From the NCBI RefSeq assembly GCF_048403405.1, contig NZ_CP183129.1: a stretch of 64,000 bases of DNA; one strand, 5' to 3'. The stretch is from Escherichia coli. Its GTDB lineage: Bacteria; Pseudomonadota; Gammaproteobacteria; Enterobacterales; Enterobacteriaceae. Under the pieces are notes generated by a model. The model ran no database searches. It was not told the DNA's origin and saw only the letters and a program-made list of their open reading frames with translations. Made by a program: the position numbers and the translations under genes. Shown piece by piece: positions 8,703-34,451 of this stretch; the stretch's first letter is position 1; every line of letters begins with the position of its first letter.

Positions 8703-8779
8703 TGGCGTGGCATGCAGGATTCGAACCTGCGACCAACCGCTTAGAAGGCGGTTGCTCTGTCCAACTGAGCTAATGCCAC
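8703..8779 (-). tRNA. tRNA-Arg (anticodon UCU), phage-encoded
   Basis: 77-nt cloverleaf folded by hand: acceptor GTGGCAT/ATGCCAC, D-arm GCTC-AGTTGGACA-GAGC, anticodon arm ACCGC-CTTCTAA-GCGGT, T-arm GCAGG-TTCGAAT-CCTGC, discriminator G, encoded CCA. Confidence 0.85.
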
Positions 8780-25602: not shown

Positions 25603-25615
25603 TGTGAAATTTCCA

Positions 25616-25643
25616 TCTATAAGCCACCTCAATGTGGCGTCAA
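25616..25643 (-). promoter_or_regulatory. Candidate sigma70 promoter for the small secreted peptide (-35 TTGACG, -10 TATAGA, 16-nt spacer)
   Basis: Minus-strand hexamers at 25638-25643 and 25616-25621. Confidence 0.35.
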
Positions 25644-25672
25644 TGAGTGTAGCACTGACTTTTGTTTCGTCC

Positions 25673-25695
25673 ACAAAAAAGCCCGCAGCGCGGGC
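25673..25695 (-). terminator. Minus-strand rho-independent terminator
   Basis: GCCCGC-AGC-GCGGGC followed on the minus strand by TTTTTT, immediately after the stop at 25696. Confidence 0.5.
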
Positions 25696-25929
25696 TTACT
25701 TTTCTTCAGGTTTGTTGTCTTCAGATTTCTTCTTGATGCTTGGTTTTTGTCTAAGACCGAAAATACCAGCCACTGCAACAACTGTACCGATCACTGTGCC
25801 AGCTAGAACTTCATGACCTGTTAAACCTAATAATGTTGCACAAGCTACTGTAAAAATAGTTGCACTCAGGCCAAACCACTGCCCACGTTTATCTCTATTA
25901 ATAGCCCCGTCAAGTGCCTTTTCCTCCAT
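25696..25929 (-). CDS. Small two-TM membrane protein (possibly the C-terminal part of a frameshifted larger gene)
   Basis: 77 aa with two hydrophobic segments and a Lys-rich tail; the same frame stays open upstream to ~26073. Confidence 0.45.
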   Translation of the reverse strand: MEEKALDGAINRDKRGQWFGLSATIFTVACATLLGLTGHEVLAGTVIGTVVAVAGIFGLRQKPSIKKKSEDNKPEEK

Positions 25930-25958
25930 TTTCTGGCGGTGAGCAAACTCCTTCTCCG

Positions 25959-26243
25959 TCAGCTGGAAGATGCGTTCGGGGGCATCAGGTAAAATATCCT
26001 GATACCCGCGAAGCAGATAGGGGGAGGAAGCGGACCCTGAAACGCATGGTGAGCGACAACTATCTCCTGAATTTCAGGGCGATCAAGAACTCTTGTGAAG
26101 GCATCTGGGTGTTGAATGATCTCGTTACTTAGCCCTTCCTCAACTTCCTCGAACTCAGTTTCTTCGTTATCACTTGGTTGCCCAATAGATTTTTGCATAT
26201 TTGTCGAAGGACATTCCTTTAGCTTCTGGTTTTCCTCTTGCAT
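25959..26243 (-). CDS. Acidic hypothetical protein (possibly the middle part of a frameshifted gene)
   Basis: 94-aa ORF overlapping the upstream ORF by 74 nt in another frame; C-terminus degenerates into Pro-rich sequence near a G5 run at ~26019-26026. Confidence 0.3.
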   Translation of the reverse strand: MQEENQKLKECPSTNMQKSIGQPSDNEETEFEEVEEGLSNEIIQHPDAFTRVLDRPEIQEIVVAHHAFQGPLPPPICFAGIRIFYLMPPNASSS

Positions 26244-26496
26244 TTGAGTTTTTCCCTGTCACTATTGCCCATTTTCCGCCAGCAGGCGCTGCAATTTTTT
26301 TTCCGTTCTTTACTATATATTCAGCATAAACACGATTTTCTGACCGTCTGAGATCGTCTCCGACCATATTCATGTCTCTTGATATAACTTTGACGACAGA
26401 GTCTCGGTTTAAAGCCTTGGCATAGTTGGAGCCAGGAACGATACCCAAAGGGGTGCCAGACTCTATAGCCAGCTCCTTGACATATCTTCTGCTCAT
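26170..26496 (-). CDS. Hypothetical protein, putative DNA-binding/regulatory N-terminal module
   Basis: ATG at 26496 after GAGGT; MSRRYVKELAIESGTPLGIVPGSNYAKALNRDSVVKV... Confidence 0.45.
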   Translation of the reverse strand: MSRRYVKELAIESGTPLGIVPGSNYAKALNRDSVVKVISRDMNMVGDDLRRSENRVYAEYIVKNGKKIAAPAGGKWAIVTGKNSNARGKPEAKGMSFDKYAKIYWATK

Positions 26497-26617
26497 ATGA
26501 ACCTCAACCAATCGACTTTACCAATCGGGTAATTTTAAACATGAGTATAATGCTTTTAACTGCAACGAGTGTAAACAATTATTGATAATTGTAGGCACAT
26601 CCCTGTGCCGCCGCCCG

Positions 26618-27310
26618 TCAGAAGAACCCTGCTTTGTCGTTGATGTACTCCGCGTGCGTCTGGATATCACGCAGGCATTTGCTCACACCGACGATGTAGC
26701 AGAACATGGTGGTCAACTCCGCCGCCGCGCCCGATACGTCGTGCCCGTCTTCCTGTAACTGGTTTAGCAGATTCATCAGCAGTGAGTTCTCCGTCAGGCC
26801 GAGAACACCAGACGGCGAATGAATCAGGCTGCGGTAGCCGGGCTTCAGTGGGGCGCTGTAGGTTTTGTTCTCTACCTTCATTGCCTGCATCACTGCTGAT
26901 GCTGTGGCGTTGGCTACCTGGTCGGCAACCATCTTTATGCGTTCTTCCTGCGGGAGCGAGTTTTTAATGTAACTTCCGGTGCGGCGGATCTGAGGAAGAA
27001 CCTCACCTGTAACCCATTCAAGAAATCTGAATGCTCTCGTTCCCTCAGTCATTGCCTCTTTGCAACGCAGAATAAGGATGTAGAGACCTGATTCTGAAAC
27101 GATGGATAGTTCTTGTATTCCACCAGGGGTCTGTATTGAATACAGCCCCTTTTTGTTCCAGCCTTTTTTATCAAGTTTTCTCGCTTGTGTAACATCAATA
27201 TTCAAAGCATTGCACACATCTTTGGTGACAAACCAAGGTTCTCCGTCAATCATGAACATACGGATCTGGCAGGATGACTCAAAGGAAAAGATGGAAGGTT
27301 TGGTATTCAT
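26618..27310 (-). CDS. Antirepressor (Bro-N domain plus KilA-C/ANT C-terminal domain)
   Basis: Start MNTKPSIF after AAAGGTGA; Bro-N-like N-terminus (FMIDGEPWFVTKDVCNALNI...) and ANT-like C-terminus, as recalled. Confidence 0.7.
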   Translation of the reverse strand: MNTKPSIFSFESSCQIRMFMIDGEPWFVTKDVCNALNIDVTQARKLDKKGWNKKGLYSIQTPGGIQELSIVSESGLYILILRCKEAMTEGTRAFRFLEWVTGEVLPQIRRTGSYIKNSLPQEERIKMVADQVANATASAVMQAMKVENKTYSAPLKPGYRSLIHSPSGVLGLTENSLLMNLLNQLQEDGHDVSGAAAELTTMFCYIVGVSKCLRDIQTHAEYINDKAGFF

Positions 27311-27669
27311 AGCGATCACCTTTGTAGTTAGGTTAATCACCACCGCTGAGACCAATCAGATGGTGGTGAACTGTGCAGAGTTGGTCTTACCGGCTACAAA
27401 GGAACCCGGCGCACCTTTCGGTGCCCCCACACAGCCCACCATAGAATAGGTGCGCTTTACACATAAAAAAACCGCTTATGCGGCATATGTGCCTCTGTAG
27501 TAATCCGGGAGACCAATCCCGGCACTGGATTTTGCCAGTGCCCGATTACTATGGCACAAGAGGAGTGCAATGTAAATTTACCGAAAAGGTAATAATAAAT
27601 GCATAACTCACGTTATTTCAACCCTATATGGTTTGATTTATCCCATTTCAGAAAATACCTGCCTATTTT

Positions 27670-27699
27670 TTTGCCAGTATGCGTATACTTTCGATAGAA
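27670..27699 (+). promoter_or_regulatory. Candidate sigma70 promoter (-35 TTGCCA, 18-nt spacer, -10 TAGAAT) for the 27718 operon
   Basis: Hexamers read directly from the sequence; palindrome site 5 abuts the -10. Confidence 0.4.
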
Positions 27700-27701
27700 T
27701 G

Positions 27702-27716
27702 TTTACCCTAGAGGTA
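27702..27716. promoter_or_regulatory. Palindrome TTACC-CTAGA-GGTAG (operator-like site 5, one arm imperfect)
   Basis: Lies between the -10 hexamer and the start codon, an operator-like position. Confidence 0.4.
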
Positions 27717-27717
27717 G

Positions 27718-28173
27718 TTGGGGGTGCCCGTGAACACGAAGAGAGCTACAGTAATGCAGCATTTGAGGAAATCAGAAAAAAATAAAGACCATGAAATATT
27801 GAGTAAGGCCATTGTTCGGGCTTCCAATAATACTGTTATACCTCATGCTGAAGAGTCTGGACAGAAATTTCTTATTCGGTATTTCACTGAAAATAGTGCA
27901 GTTGAGGAGATTTTAAAACATCAGGGAGGGGAATTTAAATGTGGAAAACTGGCAGATTATGTTCGTCGTGAAACGTCTGAACAAGAAGTATATTATGCTG
28001 ATATTAATCATAAGTCAGGTGTGAAAATTGTAATAGGCTATTACACAACTCCCAAAAATGTTATGCATGAGGTCCCAAAGATGTCCGTCGAGAAATCTCA
28101 TGCAATCTCGCGCAGGATGTTTGCACGCACTGCCGAAGATATGGCTCAGGAGCTCTACGACGATGCTGAATAA
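27718..28173 (+). CDS. Hypothetical protein with acidic C-terminus; candidate antitoxin/immunity partner of the downstream YafO-like gene (ATG alternative at ~27754)
   Basis: 151-aa ORF, AT-rich; its stop overlaps the start of the next gene (ATGCTGAATAA). Confidence 0.45.
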   Translation: MGVPVNTKRATVMQHLRKSEKNKDHEILSKAIVRASNNTVIPHAEESGQKFLIRYFTENSAVEEILKHQGGEFKCGKLADYVRRETSEQEVYYADINHKSGVKIVIGYYTTPKNVMHEVPKMSVEKSHAISRRMFARTAEDMAQELYDDAE

Positions 28174-28477
28174 ATTCCAGGGGTTGGTTCACCCTGGAAT
28201 TTTTGGGAAGGACCCTGAGCTAATACCTATCAAAAACGCGTTCATAGATCACTGGCGCTACGGTCATCATAAGGATTTCGGAAAGGACACTCTGTTTCGG
28301 GATCCACCGAAAGAAATGCTGGAATATCACATACGCCACGTTCACGTAAACATCGGAAACTATACTGACAAGTTTGGTGAGAGCGGTACGGACAATGCTG
28401 GAAAAACTGGGCGTCTGGGAAGAAAGACAAGACCACTAACAAGCATAAAAAGATCCCAACCAGTGACGTGTATGTGA
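28163..28477 (+). CDS. YafO-like toxin, N-terminal part (gene appears frame-split)
   Basis: FGKDTLFRDPPKEMLEYHIRHVHV resembles the recalled YafO motif FGRDALYDD...ERVAHIHL. Confidence 0.4.
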   Translation: MLNKFQGLVHPGIFGKDPELIPIKNAFIDHWRYGHHKDFGKDTLFRDPPKEMLEYHIRHVHVNIGNYTDKFGESGTDNAGKTGRLGRKTRPLTSIKRSQPVTCM

Positions 28478-28668
28478 TTTATCTGGTCACATCTGAACGC
28501 CATGCCTTCCTTCTGGATTATTGGGATGAACCAGCACATAAGACAGTAGAAATTGACGAGCAGAAGCAAAAATTAGTTGTCGAGTGTGACAGAATTTTGC
28601 GGCTGAAAAAGTTAGAATCCATGCCGCGCGATGCTAGTTTGTGGGACCCAGAATTTTACGACTGTTAA
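28468..28668 (+). CDS. YafO-like toxin, C-terminal part in the -1 frame
   Basis: YLVTSERHAFLLDYWDEPAHK resembles recalled YafO HLVYCQGAFDEQAWLLIAILKPEPHK; overlaps the previous ORF by 10 nt. Confidence 0.35.
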   Translation: MYVIYLVTSERHAFLLDYWDEPAHKTVEIDEQKQKLVVECDRILRLKKLESMPRDASLWDPEFYDC

Positions 28669-28669
28669 T

Positions 28670-28692
28670 GGCCGCTTTCGCGGCCTTTAAAT
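28670..28692. terminator. Bidirectional terminator hairpin
   Basis: GGCCGC-TTTC-GCGGCC followed by TTTAAATTT; same hairpin sequence as at 25419-25434. Confidence 0.5.
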
Positions 28693-28950
28693 TTACCGGG
28701 TTTGTTTTCGTAATTGTTCGGCACAATAGTCGAGATGTGTTTGCAGATCCCGCATAGACATCTGTGAGCTGGTGACGTAGTTAATCAGTGCAGTCAGTTC
28801 GGCAAGTGGGCCATCGACATTAAATCCATCCTTATCGAGATCCCGGAGTAATTTCATCAAGTGCGATCCCTCCACCAGTGACCTGACGCCTCCCGGCGTG
28901 TGAATCCTTTCGGTAAATCCGTCTTCCAGTGGATAGTGATACTGCTGCAT
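28693..28950 (-). CDS. Stand-alone KilA-C/ANT C-terminal domain protein (paralog of the antirepressor C-terminus)
   Basis: Internal ATG at 28950 after GGAGAAG; MQQYHYPLEDGFTERIHTPGGVRSLVEGSHLMKLLRDLDKDGFNV... aligns with the C-terminal ~85 aa of the antirepressor at 26618-27310. Confidence 0.6.
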   Translation of the reverse strand: MQQYHYPLEDGFTERIHTPGGVRSLVEGSHLMKLLRDLDKDGFNVDGPLAELTALINYVTSSQMSMRDLQTHLDYCAEQLRKQTR

Positions 28951-29145: not shown

Positions 29146-31797
29146 ATGACGGTCTCAACCGAAGTTGACCACAACGAATACACTGGTAACGGAGCTACGA
29201 CATCATTTCCGTATACCTTCCGTATTTTCAAAAAATCCGACCTGGTTGTTCAGGTGTCTGACCTGAACGGGAACGTAACAGAATTGGTTCTGGATACTGA
29301 CTACACAGTAACCAATGCTGGAGGATATAATGGCGGTAATGTAATTCTGTCGAAGGCGTTGGCTAACGGTTATCATATTTCTATATCACGAGAGCTCCCG
29401 GTTACGCAGGATACTGATTTGCGTAATCAGGGTAAGTTCTTCGCTGAGGTACATGAAGACGCGTTCGATAAACTGACAATGCTTATTCAAAAGTGTTTTT
29501 CATGGATGAGGTTAGCACTTATAAAACCAAGCATTCTGGCTAACTATTATGATGCAAAAAATAATAAGATATCAAATCTAGCAAATGCCACTGACAGAAA
29601 CGATGCTGTCAATAAAGGTTATGTTGATGATCTTTTTACTGGAGGTGTAACGCCTACACCTAACAGCGTTAAAAACGATATTTTTACAAATCACCAAAGA
29701 AAGATTGTAGCTACGATGCCGCTTCTTTTTCCTGAATATGATGCGATTATGGCTGCTAACCCGTCAGCAACTTATATGTATCCTCAAGGATTCTGCGTTA
29801 GCGAAGATTTGATATACATCACTTATCCATTTGAGCCTAAACAGACGAATAATGTCGTCGCAGTATTTAACATATCTGGTATTTATCAAGGTTATTTCTA
29901 TGTTCAGGCTGGCGGCCCAGGCTTCGCTGCTGAAGGAATCGTGGTTACGTCAGACTATGGCCCCAAAAAAATGTTTGTTGGTCACACAAACGGAATACTG
30001 CGTGAATTTAATATGGAGGGGGCATTATACGGAAGCAATCTGCCTCTTGTACAAAACCATGATGTTGGATTATTCAACCAGTTCAGCTACAGAAGAGGTA
30101 TATGGCTCGTTGAGCAGAATGCGCCAGAAGTAGGACAGAAAATCACAAGAACTGTACTTGCAGTGTTCGACAGTGGTTTCAATCGCCTGTCAACTATAAC
30201 GCTGCCGTTACATGATGTTGGGTATGTAACTAAAAGCACCTCACCTTATGCGCCTTATTTCAACAAGCGTCAGGGTATTGCGGTAGGTGATAACTACTTT
30301 GTCTGCGGCTATGGCGGCTTCATAGCTGATGGGGCAGGAAGCGCAGGATATAACGAATATCAGGGCAGCAAAGTTTTTAACCCTGACGGTACAAAGCGAA
30401 CTGAATCAATGCTTCATCCTCAGGCCATGATGGATTTAATGAAAGCCGCAGGATTGAACGTCACTCGCATAGAAAATGAAGGCGTTTGTGTTTCTCAGGA
30501 TGGAAAATCCATTTATTCACTTTACATTCATCAGGAAAGAACTGGCTCTGAACCTTACAATTCAGGTTTGGTTATTTTCGAAGATTTCTCCACTGATAAA
30601 GATGCTATCGATTTTACACCTGCATCCAGGCTTTACCGCGGATTTGATATCGATCACGCGAGCATTGGGGTATATCCCCGTAGTGCGAAGGGGATTGTTA
30701 ACCCTGTAGATGGTACGTTGTTCACTAACATGACTGAAATTCTTCGCTATATGCAGGAGATGAGTCAGAAGGCATTTAATTTTTACACAGGGACTGTCAG
30801 CATTGCTGATATATCTGGCGTGGCAATCCCTTCCAGCACATATGTTGAAATACTGAATGCGAATAATCAGACTTTTATAGTCAACTATTATTCATCTGAT
30901 AGTGGTATTAGTTATTTGGTTGCAACTAATCCTTCTGGTGACTTTGTATTTGTGCGCCAGCGACCGGCACAGTGGGCATCTAACTTAACCATTCAGCAAA
31001 ACGCAGATCCTGATACAAACCAATTAAACCGCATCACTGCATCATCATATGCCGGTGCAACTACAAACTCTCAGAAAATATTGGTCCTTGACCAGCAGGC
31101 TACAGCTAGCGCAAATAGCTTGGTATTGGGCGGTAGTTCTTCTGTGTTTAGGTCTGCCACCACGGTGGATATTGCATGCAACAGCGACCCGACAGCATTG
31201 GGAGGAACCATACGCTGGCGGTTTTATGATACAGGTCTTCGCCCGTTTGCTGACAATACCTATAATTTTGGTCAGGCATCGTTTCGTATTAAAGACGCCT
31301 ACTTTGCAAATGCCCCAACCGTTTCATCAGATGCCACGCTGAAAACCAATCCCGAGGCAATATCAGATTTAAGTGAAATGCTTTCTTCTGATAGAGACAG
31401 CATTCTTGATGCCTGGGGCGATATTTCTGTTGTGGCGTATCGATGGCTCGACGCTATATCCATGAAGGGCGATGGTGCCAGATGGCATTTTGGCGTCATG
31501 GCTCAGCAGGTAAGGGATGTATTCTTGGCGCACGGAATTGATGGAACCAGATTTGGCCTTCTTTGCTATGACGAGTGGGATGATATTTTTGAGCCGGTAA
31601 TCGCGACTAAAGAGATTACCGATACGTCTGGTGAGTTGGTCACCGTCGAATATGACACCGGAGAACAGAGGCTGGTTAAAAAAGCGGGTAGTTCATGGGG
31701 TATACGGCCTGACCAGTGCGCTTGGCTTGAGGCTGCATATCAGCGCCGTCGATGCGATCGTATTGAAGAGCGACTCGAACTATTGGAATCAAAATAA
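29146..31797 (+). CDS. Tailspike protein with epsilon15/CBA120-type N-terminal particle-binding domain and C-terminal self-cleaving intramolecular chaperone (peptidase S74-like) domain
   Basis: N-terminus MTVSTEVDHNEYTGNGATTSFPYTFRIFKKSDLVVQV as recalled for this tailspike family; C-terminal ~156 aa (from ~31327) with SDATLK, YRW, FGVMAQQV blocks typical of endosialidase-chaperone domains. Confidence 0.8.
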   Translation: MTVSTEVDHNEYTGNGATTSFPYTFRIFKKSDLVVQVSDLNGNVTELVLDTDYTVTNAGGYNGGNVILSKALANGYHISISRELPVTQDTDLRNQGKFFAEVHEDAFDKLTMLIQKCFSWMRLALIKPSILANYYDAKNNKISNLANATDRNDAVNKGYVDDLFTGGVTPTPNSVKNDIFTNHQRKIVATMPLLFPEYDAIMAANPSATYMYPQGFCVSEDLIYITYPFEPKQTNNVVAVFNISGIYQGYFYVQAGGPGFAAEGIVVTSDYGPKKMFVGHTNGILREFNMEGALYGSNLPLVQNHDVGLFNQFSYRRGIWLVEQNAPEVGQKITRTVLAVFDSGFNRLSTITLPLHDVGYVTKSTSPYAPYFNKRQGIAVGDNYFVCGYGGFIADGAGSAGYNEYQGSKVFNPDGTKRTESMLHPQAMMDLMKAAGLNVTRIENEGVCVSQDGKSIYSLYIHQERTGSEPYNSGLVIFEDFSTDKDAIDFTPASRLYRGFDIDHASIGVYPRSAKGIVNPVDGTLFTNMTEILRYMQEMSQKAFNFYTGTVSIADISGVAIPSSTYVEILNANNQTFIVNYYSSDSGISYLVATNPSGDFVFVRQRPAQWASNLTIQQNADPDTNQLNRITASSYAGATTNSQKILVLDQQATASANSLVLGGSSSVFRSATTVDIACNSDPTALGGTIRWRFYDTGLRPFADNTYNFGQASFRIKDAYFANAPTVSSDATLKTNPEAISDLSEMLSSDRDSILDAWGDISVVAYRWLDAISMKGDGARWHFGVMAQQVRDVFLAHGIDGTRFGLLCYDEWDDIFEPVIATKEITDTSGELVTVEYDTGEQRLVKKAGSSWGIRPDQCAWLEAAYQRRRCDRIEERLELLESK

Positions 31798-31894: not shown

Positions 31895-32296
31895 ATGAAT
31901 GGCACGGTTACGGCGGATTCACTGAATCAAGGGTTAAGCTTGGGTGCGCTGGCCTCTGTCGTCTACGGCGTTCCGCCAGAGGTGGCTCTCGGTGCTCTGG
32001 CTGGTGCGGTAATATTTGTTACCTCTGCTGTAGAGTATCCTGTTCGTCGTCGTGTACTCTTGTCGATACTCAGCTTTCTTTGTGGTCTTCTCTTTTACAA
32101 ACCAACAACATCAATTCTTATCGGAATAGCCAGCATGATACCTACCATCACGCAGGACTCTTTCGAGAAAGGGATTGTTTTCTCTGCTGGCGCATTCGTG
32201 TCAGCAATTGTCGCAGTGCGAATTGGTATATGGCTCTATCACCGCTCCGATAATCCACGCGACTTAATTCAGGGGAGAAAAGGCGATGGTAACTAA
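31895..32296 (+). CDS. Multi-TM membrane protein (holin or antiholin-like)
   Basis: ATG at 31895 after GGTGG; about four predicted TM segments; directly upstream of the holin and endolysin genes. Confidence 0.45.
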   Translation: MNGTVTADSLNQGLSLGALASVVYGVPPEVALGALAGAVIFVTSAVEYPVRRRVLLSILSFLCGLLFYKPTTSILIGIASMIPTITQDSFEKGIVFSAGAFVSAIVAVRIGIWLYHRSDNPRDLIQGRKGDGN

Positions 32297-32594
32297 TGAG
32301 CTTGTTTTGCTTATCACCAATGCAATTATTTGTACTGGCATAGCAATTCGCGTTGTCACATTCCGGCGTAACGGCTCTCAACATCGAAGATGGGGAGGGT
32401 GGCTTGCTTATTTCCTTATTGTTGCTGCGGCCAGTATTCCTGTTCGAGTCGCCTATGCAATCTGGTTACGTACGCCAATGGCTGTGGATTTATCTGAGGT
32501 CATTATCAACGCTGTCATGCTTGCCGCGGTTATTAAAACACGCGGTAACGTTGTTCAGATTTTCAAAACATCGAGGTCTAAACATGGAGATTAA
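32286..32594 (+). CDS. Holin (three-TM class)
   Basis: 102 aa, three hydrophobic helices, charged C-terminus; overlaps the endolysin start. Confidence 0.55.
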
Positions 32595-33213
32595 ACAATT
32601 CCAGCGAGCTGCTGGTATTAGCGAGGCTCTGGCCGCACGCTGGTTCTCGCATATAACTTCTGCGATGAAAGAGTTTGGTATCAGAAAACCCGAAGATCAG
32701 GCAATGTTTATTGCTCAAGTCGGGCATGAGTCTGGGGGCTTCACTAGGTTGCAGGAGAATTTCAACTACAGCGTCACAGGACTGGCTAACTTTGTTCGGG
32801 CAGGACGTCTCACTCAGGGACAGGCCAACGCATTGGGGCGACGCGCAGGCGAACCACCATTGCCACTTGAGCGCCAGAGAGCGATTGCCAATCTGGTGTA
32901 CAGCAAACGCATGGGGAACAATGCCCCCGGCGATGGCTGGAATTACCGTGGCCGCGGACTTATCCAGATTACCGGTTTGAATAACTATCGTGATTGCGGA
33001 AACGGCCTGAAAGTGGACCTGCTGGAGAATCCTGAACTGTTGGCGCAGGACGAATACGCGGCTCGTAGCGCGGCGTGGTTCTTCTCCAGCAAAGGTTGCA
33101 TGAAGTATACCGGCGATATTGCACGTGTAACTCTGATTATCAATGGTGGCAGGAATGGCATCGACGACCGGCGCGCGCGGTACGTCACTGCCAGTAAGGT
33201 GCTGGCTGTATGA
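32584..33213 (+). CDS. Endolysin, glycoside hydrolase family 19 (chitinase-like lysozyme)
   Basis: Internal ATG at 32584; motifs [12 protein letters not shown] and [11 protein letters not shown] typical of GH19 endolysins (recalled). Confidence 0.8.
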
Positions 33214-33692
33214 TCTGGTCATTCGTAAAAGCATACCGTAAACAGTTGATTATCATGGCGGTGCTTGCTGTTCTGGTCATATCAGGAGTTGTTGCCTGGA
33301 ATGTGCACGGCAGTCGTCAGTACGACGCTGGGTATGCACAGGCGAAAGAAGACCGCAAAACCGAAGATGAGAGAGTTCGTCAGCACTACGAACAGGAGAA
33401 ATCGATCAATGAACGTGAAGCGCAGCAGAGGATCGACCAGGCGCGCAATGATGCTCTTGATGCTGCCGCTCGCGCTGGCCGGTTGCAGCAACAGCTCGTT
33501 GCCATCCGTGAGCAGCTCAGGCACTATAACGCCATTGTCGGCGCTGGGTCGTCAGCCGCAGACACCGGAGTTTTGCTTGCCGACGTGTTCAGCAAATCTC
33601 TCGAGAGAAATAGACAACTGGCAGAGTATGCTGACCGGGCAGCCGAAGCCGGAAGAGTCTGCGAAAAACAGTACGACACCCTGACCAGATAG
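33210..33692 (+). CDS. Rz-like i-spanin
   Basis: N-terminal TM anchor followed by charged coiled coil; start overlaps the endolysin stop (ATGA); contains an embedded +1-frame lipoprotein gene. Confidence 0.65.
33409..33684 (+). CDS. Rz1-like o-spanin (outer-membrane lipoprotein) embedded in the Rz frame
   Basis: +1-frame ORF with RBS AGGAGA; signal peptide ending in lipobox LALAGC; Pro/Ser-rich mature part. Confidence 0.55.
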   Translation: MNVKRSRGSTRRAMMLLMLPLALAGCSNSSLPSVSSSGTITPLSALGRQPQTPEFCLPTCSANLSREIDNWQSMLTGQPKPEESAKNSTTP

Positions 33693-33796
33693 CATGGCAT
33701 TTTTCATGGTACTGATTTCCGGTGACGGTATATAAAACGGTACGAGAAAAATTTATCTTTGGAAAAATGTTATCACTCAATTGGTTATGTGTGTCG

Positions 33797-33911: not shown

Positions 33912-34451
33912 TTAATTAAACCAGCTGTCCGATTTGTTCTCTTCTGCTTTGCCCACGCTTTTCATCAGATCTCGACCGCCCTCAGTCATATTCCTGTTTG
34001 CGTCAGCTTCAGATTGCACCACATCGGTTTGCGCAGCTTTGTGCTTCAGTTCCTGATCGATAAATTCGTTTTCTCGCTTAACGCGGGCTTCTTCTTTCGC
34101 CAGCGCCAGTTTTTGTTTCTGAATCTCTAAGCTGCGTAGCTCATCTTGATAACTTTGATCGCGTTTTTTGTCCGCAGAGGCTTCGGCGTCCAGTTTATCC
34201 TGACGAGCTTTCTTATTTGCCGCTGCCGTTGCCGCTCTTTTGTTAGCGGCGGCCTGGGCGTTTGCGCGACGTTGCTTCTCTTGCTGGATTTCCCTGTTGC
34301 GCTCCGCGACCCATTCGTCATGCTGCCTTTGCTCTTCATTTTTACCTTGCTGTTCCGCTTCTGCGACAGCAGAGAGTTGATCCTGCAATGATGAGGCGAT
34401 AGCCGGATAGCTTAAGGAGGCTAAGATGGCGCAAAGAAAAACTTTCTTCAT
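33912..34451 (-). CDS. yfgI: YfgI, periplasmic coiled-coil protein
   Basis: 179 aa with signal peptide; size and synteny match K-12 yfgI. Confidence 0.8.
   Translation of the reverse strand: MKKVFLCAILASLSYPAIASSLQDQLSAVAEAEQQGKNEEQRQHDEWVAERNREIQQEKQRRANAQAAANKRAATAAANKKARQDKLDAEASADKKRDQSYQDELRSLEIQKQKLALAKEEARVKRENEFIDQELKHKAAQTDVVQSEADANRNMTEGGRDLMKSVGKAEENKSDSWFN

Follow-up and report, generated by a model that had tools for sequence, protein, structure and literature searches.

A prophage tailspike of Escherichia coli with an S74 chaperone domain and a five-bladed propeller probably directed at the K2 capsule

Results

Tailspike gene and its prophage setting

The window analyzed here, a stretch of 64,000 nucleotides of an Escherichia coli chromosome (contig NZ_CP183129.1), carries the gene of a phage tailspike which, according to its neighborhood, is the sole receptor-binding protein of an epsilon15-like prophage. 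An earlier note on this DNA had placed an open reading frame of this extent here, and the list of open reading frames and the translation returned it exactly, with 883 amino acids; its RefSeq match, WP_061092056.1, bears the label "tail fiber domain-containing protein." The prophage adjoins yfgI in the chromosome, and the gene is flanked by a moron/antirepressor block on one side and by the lysis cassette on the other. The gene is 99.5–99.9% identical across the 18 complete E. coli genomes carrying it. A promoter/terminator scan around it gave nothing exceeding the shuffled expectation and found no terminator in the interval between the tailspike and the holin. The features are as follows.

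29146..31797, + strand: tailspike/tail fiber gene, 883 codons plus stop, ATG start (open reading frame list and translation)
29146..29550, + strand: N-terminal virion-anchor module, aa 1–135, of the epsilon15/TL-2011b/Dpo31 type (PHROG, PDB, shared DNA)
29551..29655, + strand: neck or linker, aa 136–170, with a T7-fiber-like motif (sub-threshold PF03906) and a recombination junction at its end
29692..30585, + strand: five-bladed beta-propeller, aa ~183–480, predicted receptor-binding and possibly catalytic domain
29932..30480, + strand: span of conserved polar residues (alignment of 106 family members)
29932–29934, + strand: E263, at least 90% conserved in the 106 members
30112–30114, + strand: E323, conserved polar residue of the propeller
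30265–30267, + strand: K374, at least 90% conserved in the 106 members
30271–30273, + strand: Q376, invariant in the 106 members
30466–30483, + strand: E443 and E445 inside RIENEG, both invariant in the 106 members
30586..30945, + strand: post-propeller alpha/beta domain, aa 481–600 (pLDDT >90 up to aa ~600)
30946..31326, + strand: trimeric beta stalk, aa 601–727, of which aa 665–727 align with the 3gw6 stalk; it ends at the predicted cleavage site S727|S728
31252–31254, + strand: D703 in the stalk, upstream Asp (-25) of the proposed mechanism
31285–31287, + strand: R714 in the stalk, upstream Arg (-14) of the proposed mechanism
31327..31794, + strand: C-terminal intramolecular chaperone domain (Peptidase_S74), aa 728–883, 17.7 kDa (PF13884, 3gw6)
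31327–31329, + strand: predicted nucleophile S728, aligned with the mutated Ser911 of 3gw6
31342–31344, + strand: predicted base K733, aligned with the lysine five residues after Ser911 in 3gw6

N-terminal anchor and mosaic architecture

Residues 1–165 were matched by phrog_1640 and many other tail PHROGs, and residues 1–130 by the Dpo31 tailspike (PDB 28lx/8ck1, E = 2e-25). At the DNA level, only nucleotides 1–340 of the gene are common to 493 E. coli genomes and to phages of the epsilon15/TL-2011b type, whereas the remainder beyond these ~340 nucleotides is present in 18 genomes only. This mosaic pattern indicates that the receptor module is exchangeable. The earlier note had called the middle part of the protein exchangeable and had derived this from its S74 domain; such a domain does not imply exchangeability, which is shown independently by the mosaic pattern. 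Nor is the middle part the unit that moves, as the cassette of residues ~171–883 moves whole. Likeness to Milel and P0001 starts at residues ~166–171, and the cassette recurs behind a T7-type N-terminus in Kayfunavirus Milel (71% identity) and behind a P22-type head-binding domain (Pfam) in P0001, with 76% identity in the whole-protein alignment and 79% over the central 500 residues of the tailspike (BLASTP). The mobile unit comprises the entire C-terminal cassette, including the chaperone. In the neck, the Phage_T7_tail family (PF03906) matched residues 134–161 with a score under the Pfam cut-off.

S74 chaperone domain

The self-cleaving chaperone domain suspected earlier from sequence blocks was found by Pfam, in which Peptidase_S74 (PF13884) matched residues 728–797 with E = 2.9e-12 and a score of 47.1 bits, the gathering threshold being 22. 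The stalk and chaperone of the K1F endosialidase (PDB 3gw6) matched residues 665–883 through the C-terminal helix (E = 3.9e-39), and the chaperone-bearing proteins of GA-1 (3gud) and T5 (4uw8), as well as other such fibers, also matched. The three blocks lie where they had been reported: SDATLK at residues 728–733 (31327–31344), YRW at 765–767 (31438–31446) and FGVMAQQV at 782–789 (31489–31512). Judged by sequence, their joint presence is more than chance, and the approximate domain length of 156 residues proved exact. With 3gw6 aligned end-to-end, the domain forms the extreme C-terminus of the tail fiber product, directly after the beta stalk. The stalk monomer was modeled with pLDDT 57–83, a low value expected for an intertwined trimer.

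Both the S74 match and the Ser-Lys dyad are present on alignment. The position of Ser911 is occupied by Ala in the 3gw6 crystal, in which this residue was mutated. The residues on which the proposed autocleavage mechanism depends (D703, R714, S728, and K733) are all four present, with a D-x10-R-x13-S-x4-K spacing identical to that of D1239/R1250/S1264/K1269 in T5 pb1, and the dyad is kept in 32/32 family members having an S74 domain. The first reading of the gene, a tailspike with a C-terminal self-cleaving chaperone domain, thus holds for the tailspike, the domain and its dyad, and the cleavage itself is predicted. Taken alone, the S74 part of the interpretation is very nearly certain.

The closeness of the stalk and chaperone to those of the K1F endosialidase, together with the annotation of coliphage homologs as "endo-N-acetylneuraminidase," could point to a K1 capsule depolymerase. 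However, similarity to endoNF is limited to residues 665–883, the propeller described below has five blades, and its fold neighbors are not sialidases. An endosialidase (GH58) is effectively refuted, and we give it almost no weight.

Five-bladed propeller and its family

The earlier note had proposed a structure prediction of the central domain, and this allowed its fold to be classified: residues ~183–480 were modeled with high confidence (pLDDT 91) as a five-bladed beta-propeller. A right-handed parallel beta-helix, the commonest form of depolymerases, is ruled out by this model. The propeller family comprises 283 clusters, has neither a name nor a Pfam model, and its members are found with many partners and hosts. 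Pfam gave nothing on the central part; matches above threshold in the protein were limited to S74, a Myosin_N match fell under the cut-off, and an NCBIfam scan of the whole protein found no family. The tailspike shares 34–37% identity with P0010, P0031, and P0055 and 35% alignment identity with P0057.

The alpha/beta domain that follows is kept together with the propeller in the fiber of Staphylococcus phage vB_SscM-1 (Foldseek TM 0.75, 493 columns). The nearest solved folds are staphylococcal phage receptor-binding proteins. Searching PDB sequences with a profile built from 106 members of the family returned no 5efv, 6v8i, or 6iab at E ≤ 1, and the link between the propeller and Gp45 of phage phi11 is structural only. 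Other Staphylococcus phage proteins are sequence homologs of the propeller, and in phages of this genus its relatives are receptor-binding proteins that recognize wall teichoic acid.

Conserved polar residues and possible catalysis

The conserved polar residues are all retained in the Staphylococcus phage homologs and in the stand-alone capsule-locus homologs. According to the secondary structure of the model, each lies in, or right before, the first strand of a blade, and from the secondary-structure string we infer that they line the central cavity of the propeller. No catalytic family in Pfam or NCBIfam matched the propeller, in which only the invariant E/E/K/Q cluster was seen. The label "glycerophosphoryl diester phosphodiesterase" of phrog_22693 is unsupported, the Staphylococcus phage homolog vB_SscM-1_112 being without a Pfam GDPD domain.

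These data bear on whether the propeller would cut its target or only hold it. A lectin-like binder of the K2 capsule, or of its glycerol-phosphate/sugar moiety, acting without cleavage as has been proposed for the phi11 Gp45 platform, would agree with the closest solved folds: phi11 Gp45 and its relatives are described as GlcNAc binders, not enzymes, with GlcNAc modeled in the central cavity. Catalytic motifs known from hydrolase, lyase or GDPD families were not detected in the propeller, and surveys in Klebsiella call the activity of phage propeller-type "depolymerases" unclear. Yet the polar cluster is invariant across hosts of differing glycans and in periplasmic capsule proteins, which resembles a shared chemistry rather than a specificity pocket. 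Moreover, short-tailed phages that meet a thick group 2 capsule generally have to degrade it, and loci for polysaccharide synthesis frequently include a gene for a hydrolase or lyase acting on that polysaccharide, such as AlgL, PslG, or BcsZ. On balance, we consider pure binding a serious but rather unlikely alternative.

Homologs in glycerol-phosphate capsule loci

Stand-alone versions of the propeller with a signal-peptide-like N-terminus are encoded at a constant position in group 2 capsule loci of the glycerol-phosphate (teichoic-acid-like) type. This position was identical in 7/7 contexts examined, in a five-gene region 2 next to kpsS with the order cytidylyltransferase, TPR/LicD, TagF-like polymerase, ~340-aa protein and propeller. 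Over 297 residues, the tailspike shares 40% identity (E = 3e-63) with WP_061089240.1, the protein from the K2 locus of the lysogen itself, which keeps all the conserved motifs (YPxxF / EG / NQF / KRQG / YQG / RIENEG). These motifs are invariant between the tailspike and the capsule-locus proteins. The similarity ends at residue ~480 of the tailspike, the alpha/beta domain being missing from the stand-alone proteins.

In the lysogen, strain 2/0, the other four region 2 proteins carry the same accessions as in CFT073, the K2 reference strain (PMC12488582). A TagF-like polymerase synthesizes K2, a polymer resembling teichoic acid (PMC5974469, PMC13171606), and the function of the capsule-locus propeller gene was still listed as unknown in recent biochemical work (PMC11666461). 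Gene order suggests the name kslE for the K2 propeller gene, and Cps7E, a gene of "unknown function" in A. pleuropneumoniae serotype 7, is its probable equivalent.

Co-occurrence with the K2 capsule

The K2 gene was present in 16 of the 18 tailspike genomes, compared with 140/5426 overall (odds ratio 341, p = 2.4e-24), counts that are not independent events given the clonal relatedness of many K2 genomes (ST131, ST73). With clones collapsed, it was found in 11 of 13 (p = 1e-16). As a control for the phage backbone, epsilon15-type tailspikes with other central modules were in K2-gene genomes in only 2/475 cases (p = 5e-26). A second phage type repeats the association: a Mu-like prophage fiber with a propeller 54% identical to the present one occurs in only three non-K2 genomes, and it is on this replicate that clonal relatedness weighs most. 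The two tailspike hosts without the K2 gene are B19695 and Nord58. B19695 has a ribitol-phosphate-type capsule locus with no propeller gene; its 378-aa region 2 protein, considered as a divergent propeller, is unrelated.

Phages of the epsilon15, phiV10 and TL-2011b type are O-antigen dependent, the epsilon15-like ones classically using O-antigen as receptor, and the O25 wzx gene was present in 9/18 hosts (odds ratio 11, p = 5e-6). The tailspike might therefore be specific for an O-antigen such as O25b, with the K2 association arising as a by-product of lineage structure. However, K2-positive hosts span six O-antigen clusters (O25, O16, O2/O50, O4, O6, and one unnamed), and the same protein (at least 99.5% nucleotide identity) also occurs with O15. 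The K2 association is ~30-fold stronger by odds ratio, and the capsule-locus homology has no counterpart in O-antigen loci. O-antigen as the main determinant was rejected (composite BLAST queries and rfb annotation), and this explanation is highly improbable.

A further alternative is a different receptor on the surface of extraintestinal pathogenic E. coli (ExPEC), in which case shared host ancestry and a widespread fold family would make the K2 co-occurrence and the capsule-locus homology coincidental. The host genomes do fall into phylogenetic clusters (B2-type ExPEC), the capsule of one host is not K2, and the family is broad in partners and hosts. Against this stand the backbone control, the association across six O-types and across human, dog, and cattle isolates, its repetition in the second phage type, and the restriction of stand-alone homologs to glycerol-phosphate capsule loci (7/7 cases). 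We regard coincidence as improbable, though less so than an O-antigen target.

The homology to the K2-locus protein and the near-exclusive co-occurrence with K2, which as a pattern among lysogens is indirect evidence, point to the K2 capsule as the most likely target of the tailspike. The earlier view that its specificity cannot be read from sequence stands for the sequence alone, but not when these comparative data are included.

Discussion

From the observed anatomy, fold, homologies, and co-occurrence, we propose that the gene encodes a tailspike with an S74 chaperone and a K2-directed propeller, and we give this reading as a whole a probability of roughly two in three. The N-terminal anchor (residues 1–135 plus the neck) would fit the protein to the virion of a temperate epsilon15-like podovirus, and the mobile cassette of residues ~171–883 would supply the propeller, a small accessory domain, the trimeric beta stalk, and the chaperone. 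During assembly, three chaperone domains may nucleate trimerization of the stalk. After its correct folding, R714 of a neighboring chain, together with D703, would position the S727–S728 bond for S728, activated by K733, to cut. Such autocleavage, proposed from homology, would free the 17.7-kDa chaperone and leave a mature subunit of 80 kDa.

The three propellers of the mature trimer would then recognize the K2 capsule, a teichoic-acid-like poly(galactosyl-glycerol-phosphate), most probably via the conserved polar cavity (E263, E323, K374, Q376, E443, and E445). They may also cleave the capsule polymer and in this way give the short-tailed virion access to the outer membrane; we argue for catalysis more weakly than for the K2 target and give it somewhat less than an even chance. 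The propeller is a homolog of a periplasmic protein encoded by the last gene of the K2-type capsule region 2. The two likely descend from one family, the capsule-locus member serving to process the capsule and the phage member to depolymerize it.

More tentatively, the propeller could represent a new group of enzymes whose substrates are teichoic-acid-like (glycosyl-polyol-phosphate) polymers. If so, no K2 depolymerase would have been identified before this tailspike, which might be a metal-dependent phosphodiesterase employing the invariant glutamates. Members of this possible, though doubtful, family would be the periplasmic proteins encoded last in glycerol-phosphate group 2 loci (of E. coli K2 and of the Pasteurellaceae/Neisseria type), fibers of phages infecting Gram-negative hosts, and Staphylococcus phage baseplate proteins.

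K2 ranks among the four most frequent capsule types of ExPEC (PMC13171606); the reference strain CFT073 carries it, as does a part of the pandemic clone ST131. A published compilation of the K antigens for which a phage depolymerase is known does not include K2 (PMC12488582). Our literature search found nothing usable on the hosts of Kayfunavirus Milel/Bia, on K2-specific phages, or on depolymerases of teichoic-acid-like capsules. Propellers make up 12–18% of predicted phage depolymerase folds, and in Klebsiella propeller-type receptor-binding proteins are considered hard to assign to a capsule type (PMC12491483); the present case suggests that they may be assignable through homology to a host capsule-locus gene. 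If our interpretation is true, the tailspike could serve typing, phage engineering or capsule stripping as a K2-specific receptor-binding protein or depolymerase, and the conserved capsule-locus propeller gene gains a concrete functional hypothesis. The propeller fold, the stand-alone capsule-locus homologs, the K2 co-occurrence, and the backbone control are new here.

Comparison with known systems

The tailspikes of epsilon15, phiV10, and TL-2011b (Uetakevirus-like) share the anchor of the present protein (80–87% nucleotide identity over ~340 nucleotides), its gene position before the lysis cassette, and its prophage type, but carry other receptor modules, labeled right-handed beta-helix in their records, where the tailspike has the propeller cassette. 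Endosialidase-type chaperones (K1F endoNF, 3gw6; T5 pb1, 4uw8; GA-1/phi29 appendage, 3gud) have the same domain in the same position, with the same dyad and upstream Asp/Arg sensor residues, a preceding beta stalk, and a C-terminal helix. The client differs, being a five-bladed propeller of another family and not a six-bladed sialidase or a beta-helix, and the residue preceding the scissile Ser is Ser instead of the usual Thr.

The last region 2 gene of the K2 ksl operon of CFT073 (C_RS17505, WP_001208051.1) encodes the same propeller domain. Unlike the tailspike, its product is a stand-alone, chromosomal, non-viral protein of ~330 aa with a signal-peptide-like N-terminus, and is devoid of the accessory domain, stalk, and chaperone. 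Finally, the tailspike shares with the phi11 Gp45 platform a five-bladed beta-propeller within a trimeric receptor-binding protein. Such staphylococcal platform propellers (phi11 Gp45, 5efv; 80alpha, 6v8i; P68, 6iab; NF5, 9m7x; also fibers of Twort-like phages) belong to baseplates of phages of Gram-positive hosts, and the Gp45-type proteins differ from the tailspike in having a coiled-coil stem and in lacking an S74 chaperone.

The Tailspike Gene and Its Prophage

The tailspike is encoded by one ORF of 883 codons with an ATG start (window 29146-31797, + strand). The window is E. coli chromosome. Of 5426 complete E. coli genomes, 18 carry the gene, at 99.5-99.9% identity, and its RefSeq name there, "tail fiber domain-containing protein," derives from the S74 domain. 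According to the annotation of the lysogen 2/0, the tailspike belongs to a podovirus-type prophage with the order portal, major capsid protein, T7 gp14-like core protein, large internal proteins, a block of two YafO toxins and an antirepressor, tailspike, two holins, GH19 endolysin, and DUF2514 protein; the chromosomal yfgI comes after the DUF2514 gene. No second receptor-binding protein is annotated in the 2/0 prophage, and a promoter and terminator scan around the tailspike revealed nothing convincing between the gene and its neighbors. The integration site is identical in strains 2/0 and S1-KEN-05-A.

Prophage features in the window (accessory block transferred from the annotated locus L001; window = L001 + 9145)
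8703-8779, - strand: tRNA-Arg (anticodon tct), within or beside the left prophage part, just upstream of the portal gene region
~25611-28950: accessory block between the DNA-injection genes and the tailspike, also holding small hypothetical genes
~25611-26123, - strand: YafO-family toxin gene 1
~26566-27222, - strand: Ant antirepressor
~28163-28669, + strand: YafO-family toxin gene 2
28670-28685: strong terminator-like hairpin, 3' of the second YafO gene
31895-33707 and 33912-34451: lysis cassette directly 3' of the tailspike (two holins, GH19 endolysin, DUF2514/Rz-like protein) and, beside the prophage end at ~33.8 kb, chromosomal yfgI

The C-Terminal Chaperone

The earlier note had described a tailspike with a C-terminal self-cleaving S74 chaperone, and the presence of this domain is confirmed. 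All three motifs that it named were found in the translation at the positions it gave:

aa 728-733 (nt 31327-31344), + strand: SDATLK
aa 765-767, + strand: YRW
aa 782-789, + strand: FGVMAQQV

Pfam assigns aa 728-797 to Peptidase_S74 (E = 2.9e-12; score 47 bits, cut-off 22), and 3gw6, the crystallized stalk and chaperone of the K1F endosialidase, aligns to aa 665-883 with the C-terminal helix included (E = 3.9e-39); GA-1, T5, and other chaperone-bearing fibers are further matches. The conserved Ser-Lys dyad is present in the 3gw6 alignment, S728 falling on the mutated catalytic serine and K733 on the lysine at +5. In the mechanism proposed for the T5 fiber, the Lys at +5 activates the scissile Ser, while an Arg of the neighboring chain (-14) and an Asp (-25) act as a sensor of triple beta-helix formation (PMC4690869); the tailspike counterparts are S728, K733, R714, and D703. 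The pattern S-D-x3-K is kept in 32 of the 32 S74-bearing members of the central-domain family, with the full spacing in 24 of them. By analogy with K1F and T5, the chaperone would drive trimerization of the stalk and then cleave itself between S727 and S728, with predicted products of 80 kDa (mature chain) and 17.7 kDa (chaperone).

The Central Domain Is a Predicted Five-Bladed Propeller

No Pfam or NCBIfam model matches aa 160-660. An exhaustive HMMER search recovered 283 clusters at E ≤ 1e-3, 111 of them at E ≤ 1e-30, with a common core of aa ~182-595. The earlier note had proposed structure prediction to classify the fold, and the resulting AlphaFold2 model (106-sequence alignment) is confident (pLDDT 91, pTM 0.85) and contains five four-stranded blades (aa 183-480), followed by an alpha/beta domain to aa ~600 and by lower-confidence strands of the trimeric stalk. 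The Foldseek result agrees with a five-bladed propeller; the top match in the viral library was a Staphylococcus Twort-like phage fiber over the whole 500 residues (TM 0.75), and the GA-1 neck appendage, which like the tailspike has an S74 chaperone, was also matched. Sequence-level homologs occur among Staphylococcus, Erwinia, and Weissella phage proteins; in the sequence search phi11 Gp45 was out of reach of the family profile.

The 106-sequence alignment shows no variation at Q376, E443, and E445 and almost none at E263 and K374, and all five are retained in the staphylococcal and stand-alone proteins. Each of these polar residues is placed by the model at the start of a blade's first strand. 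Since it is this strand that lines the central cavity of propellers, the conserved residues are predicted to face that cavity.

Public labels on the relatives appear to be transfers from neighboring domains. Phage records of coliphage homologs carry "endo-N-acetylneuraminidase," and only their stalk and chaperone are endosialidase-like; the Staphylococcus phage homologs labeled "glycerophosphoryl diester phosphodiesterase" (phrog_22693; L010 1166-3988) have no Pfam GDPD domain.

The Propeller Travels With the Chaperone

Only the first ~340 nt of the tailspike are common to other elements: they occur, at 78-100% identity, in 493 E. coli genomes and in phages of the epsilon15, TL-2011b, and phiv142-3 types; the N-terminal 130 residues match the solved Dpo31 tailspike. 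A separate cassette begins at about aa 166-171. In the lytic T7-like Kayfunavirus Milel it shows 71% identity over aa 171-883 and stands behind a T7-fiber N-terminus and a TSP1/gp66-type adaptor, and in the family member P0001 (76% identity in the whole-protein alignment, 79% over the central 500 aa by BLASTP) the N-terminus is a P22-type head-binding domain according to Pfam. In remoter relatives, the propeller is joined to a tail-collar N-terminus, a gp53-like C-terminus, a GDSL esterase, or a shorter S74 subtype. The G+C content climbs stepwise from 40.4% in the anchor through 42.6% in the center and 47.9% in the stalk to 48.7% in the chaperone (window, 50%), which is consistent with a mosaic origin. 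The conclusion of the earlier note that the receptor-binding part is exchangeable was thus right, but the S74 domain from which it was drawn is not the reason: the cassette recurs with its chaperone behind other N-termini, and therefore the exchangeable unit includes the chaperone.

Stand-Alone Propellers in Capsule Loci

Eight fetched family members of ~340 aa consist of the propeller alone, with a signal-peptide-like N-terminus. In each genomic context inspected (P0010 on two contigs, P0031, P0055, P0057, and P0079), the propeller gene comes last in a conserved group 2 capsule region 2, the order being kpsT, small cytidylyltransferase, TPR/LicD protein, a ~1250-aa TPR + TagF-like glycerophosphotransferase + GT1 polymerase, a ~340-aa protein, propeller, kpsS, kpsC, kpsD, kpsE, and kpsF. 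The lysogen 2/0 has a capsule region of the same architecture. Its propeller is WP_061089240.1 ("hypothetical protein," 331 aa), which shares 40% identity with the propeller of the tailspike across 297 residues (E = 3e-63) and retains every motif. For the remaining four proteins of this region 2, the accessions in 2/0 and CFT073 are the same; the CFT073 capsule is K2, encoded by kslCDABE (PMC12488582). According to PMC5974469 and to references in PMC13171606, K2 is a poly(galactosyl-glycerol-phosphate) that resembles teichoic acid and is synthesized by a TagF-like polymerase. For the related locus of A. pleuropneumoniae serotype 7, the fifth gene is still given as "of unknown function" (PMC11666461).

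Association With the K2 Locus

Co-occurrence was counted with a composite BLAST query of 1500 nt of the tailspike center plus a marker gene, which a genome holding both matches in two places. The K2 propeller gene was present in 16 of 18 tailspike hosts versus 140 of 5426 genomes overall (odds ratio 341, p = 2.4e-24), and in 11 of 13 hosts after obvious clones were collapsed (p = 1e-16). O25 wzx was found in 9/18 hosts versus 460 genomes overall and O16 wzx in 1/18; the K2-positive hosts, from humans, dogs, and cattle, carry O25, O16, O2/O50, O4, O6, and one unnamed O cluster (PGAP names). As a backbone control, the N-terminal segment (493 genomes) and the K2 gene (140) gave a union of 615 and hence an overlap of 18, of which 16 are this cassette; epsilon15-type tailspikes with other centers occur in K2 hosts in only 2 of 475 cases (p = 5e-26).

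A second prophage fiber, P0005 of a Mu-like myovirus (791 aa; L023 6001-8376, GCA_032431415.1), combines a propeller of 54% identity with an S74 domain. It was located at some 60 sites in E. coli genomes and occurs with the K2 gene in all but three of the genomes that carry it; many of these carriers are ST131 clones, which makes this association weaker than the counts suggest. Several lysogens (Ecol_AZ146, P4/FP4, 98889, A1.S1.18, and Nord58) have both prophages.

Two hosts are exceptions. The kps region 2 of B19695 (O15; L018, NZ_CP196120.1 833495-842506) is of the ribitol-phosphate type: it encodes a TagF-like polymerase and an IspD+SDR enzyme resembling a CDP-ribitol synthase, but lacks a propeller gene; the 378-aa protein of this region, considered as a divergent propeller, proved unrelated on comparison. 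Adjoining this locus in the chromosome is an ISEcp1-blaCTX-M-15/IS26/OXA-1/aac(6')-Ib-cr resistance island (824204-830385). In Nord58 both K2-associated fibers are present (NZ_CP139846.1, 1758711-1760211 and 1094230-1095730) and the K2 gene is absent; a 1-nt indel in the epsilon15-type tailspike of this strain splits the annotation. Such a combination would be compatible with a change of capsule after lysogeny, which is plausible because ST131 capsule loci are known to be mosaic (PMC13171606).

An O25 cluster gene of 2/0 is annotated as frameshifted (L016 6496-7558 = L004, NZ_CP023853.1 2321496-2322558), and OX030728 has a truncated O-antigen flippase beside an IS1 (L027 38641-39294); some lysogens may therefore lack O-antigen.

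Target and Activity

We consider the K2 capsule to be the probable target of the propeller, with a probability of about 70%. The three propellers of the mature spike would engage K2 through the conserved central cavity and probably depolymerize it, and the short-tailed virion would thus reach the outer membrane. Catalysis itself is a more tentative proposal, to which we give slightly less than an even chance. Podoviruses need passage through a group 2 capsule, polysaccharide loci generally encode an enzyme cleaving their own product, and the invariance of the acidic cluster in the alignment, whatever the host, would also argue for an enzyme. Against catalysis, the characterized structural relatives of the propeller are binders, none of the catalytic families matches it, and surveys call the activity of phage propellers unclear; a propeller that binds K2 without cleaving it is the somewhat less probable alternative.

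Comparison With Known Systems

The literature searched contained no assignment of the propeller family, no report that glycerol-phosphate capsule loci encode it as a fixed gene, and no link of it to K2; nor did it yield depolymerases of teichoic-acid-like capsules. The list of K types for which a phage depolymerase is known does not include K2 (PMC12488582). As originally stated, a tailspike with an S74 chaperone is an ordinary finding: such chaperones are of a known kind, as are modular tailspikes and receptor-binding proteins of the propeller type, and it is the homology to a capsule-locus gene that makes two questions directly testable, namely the recognition of K2 and the role of the fifth capsule gene.
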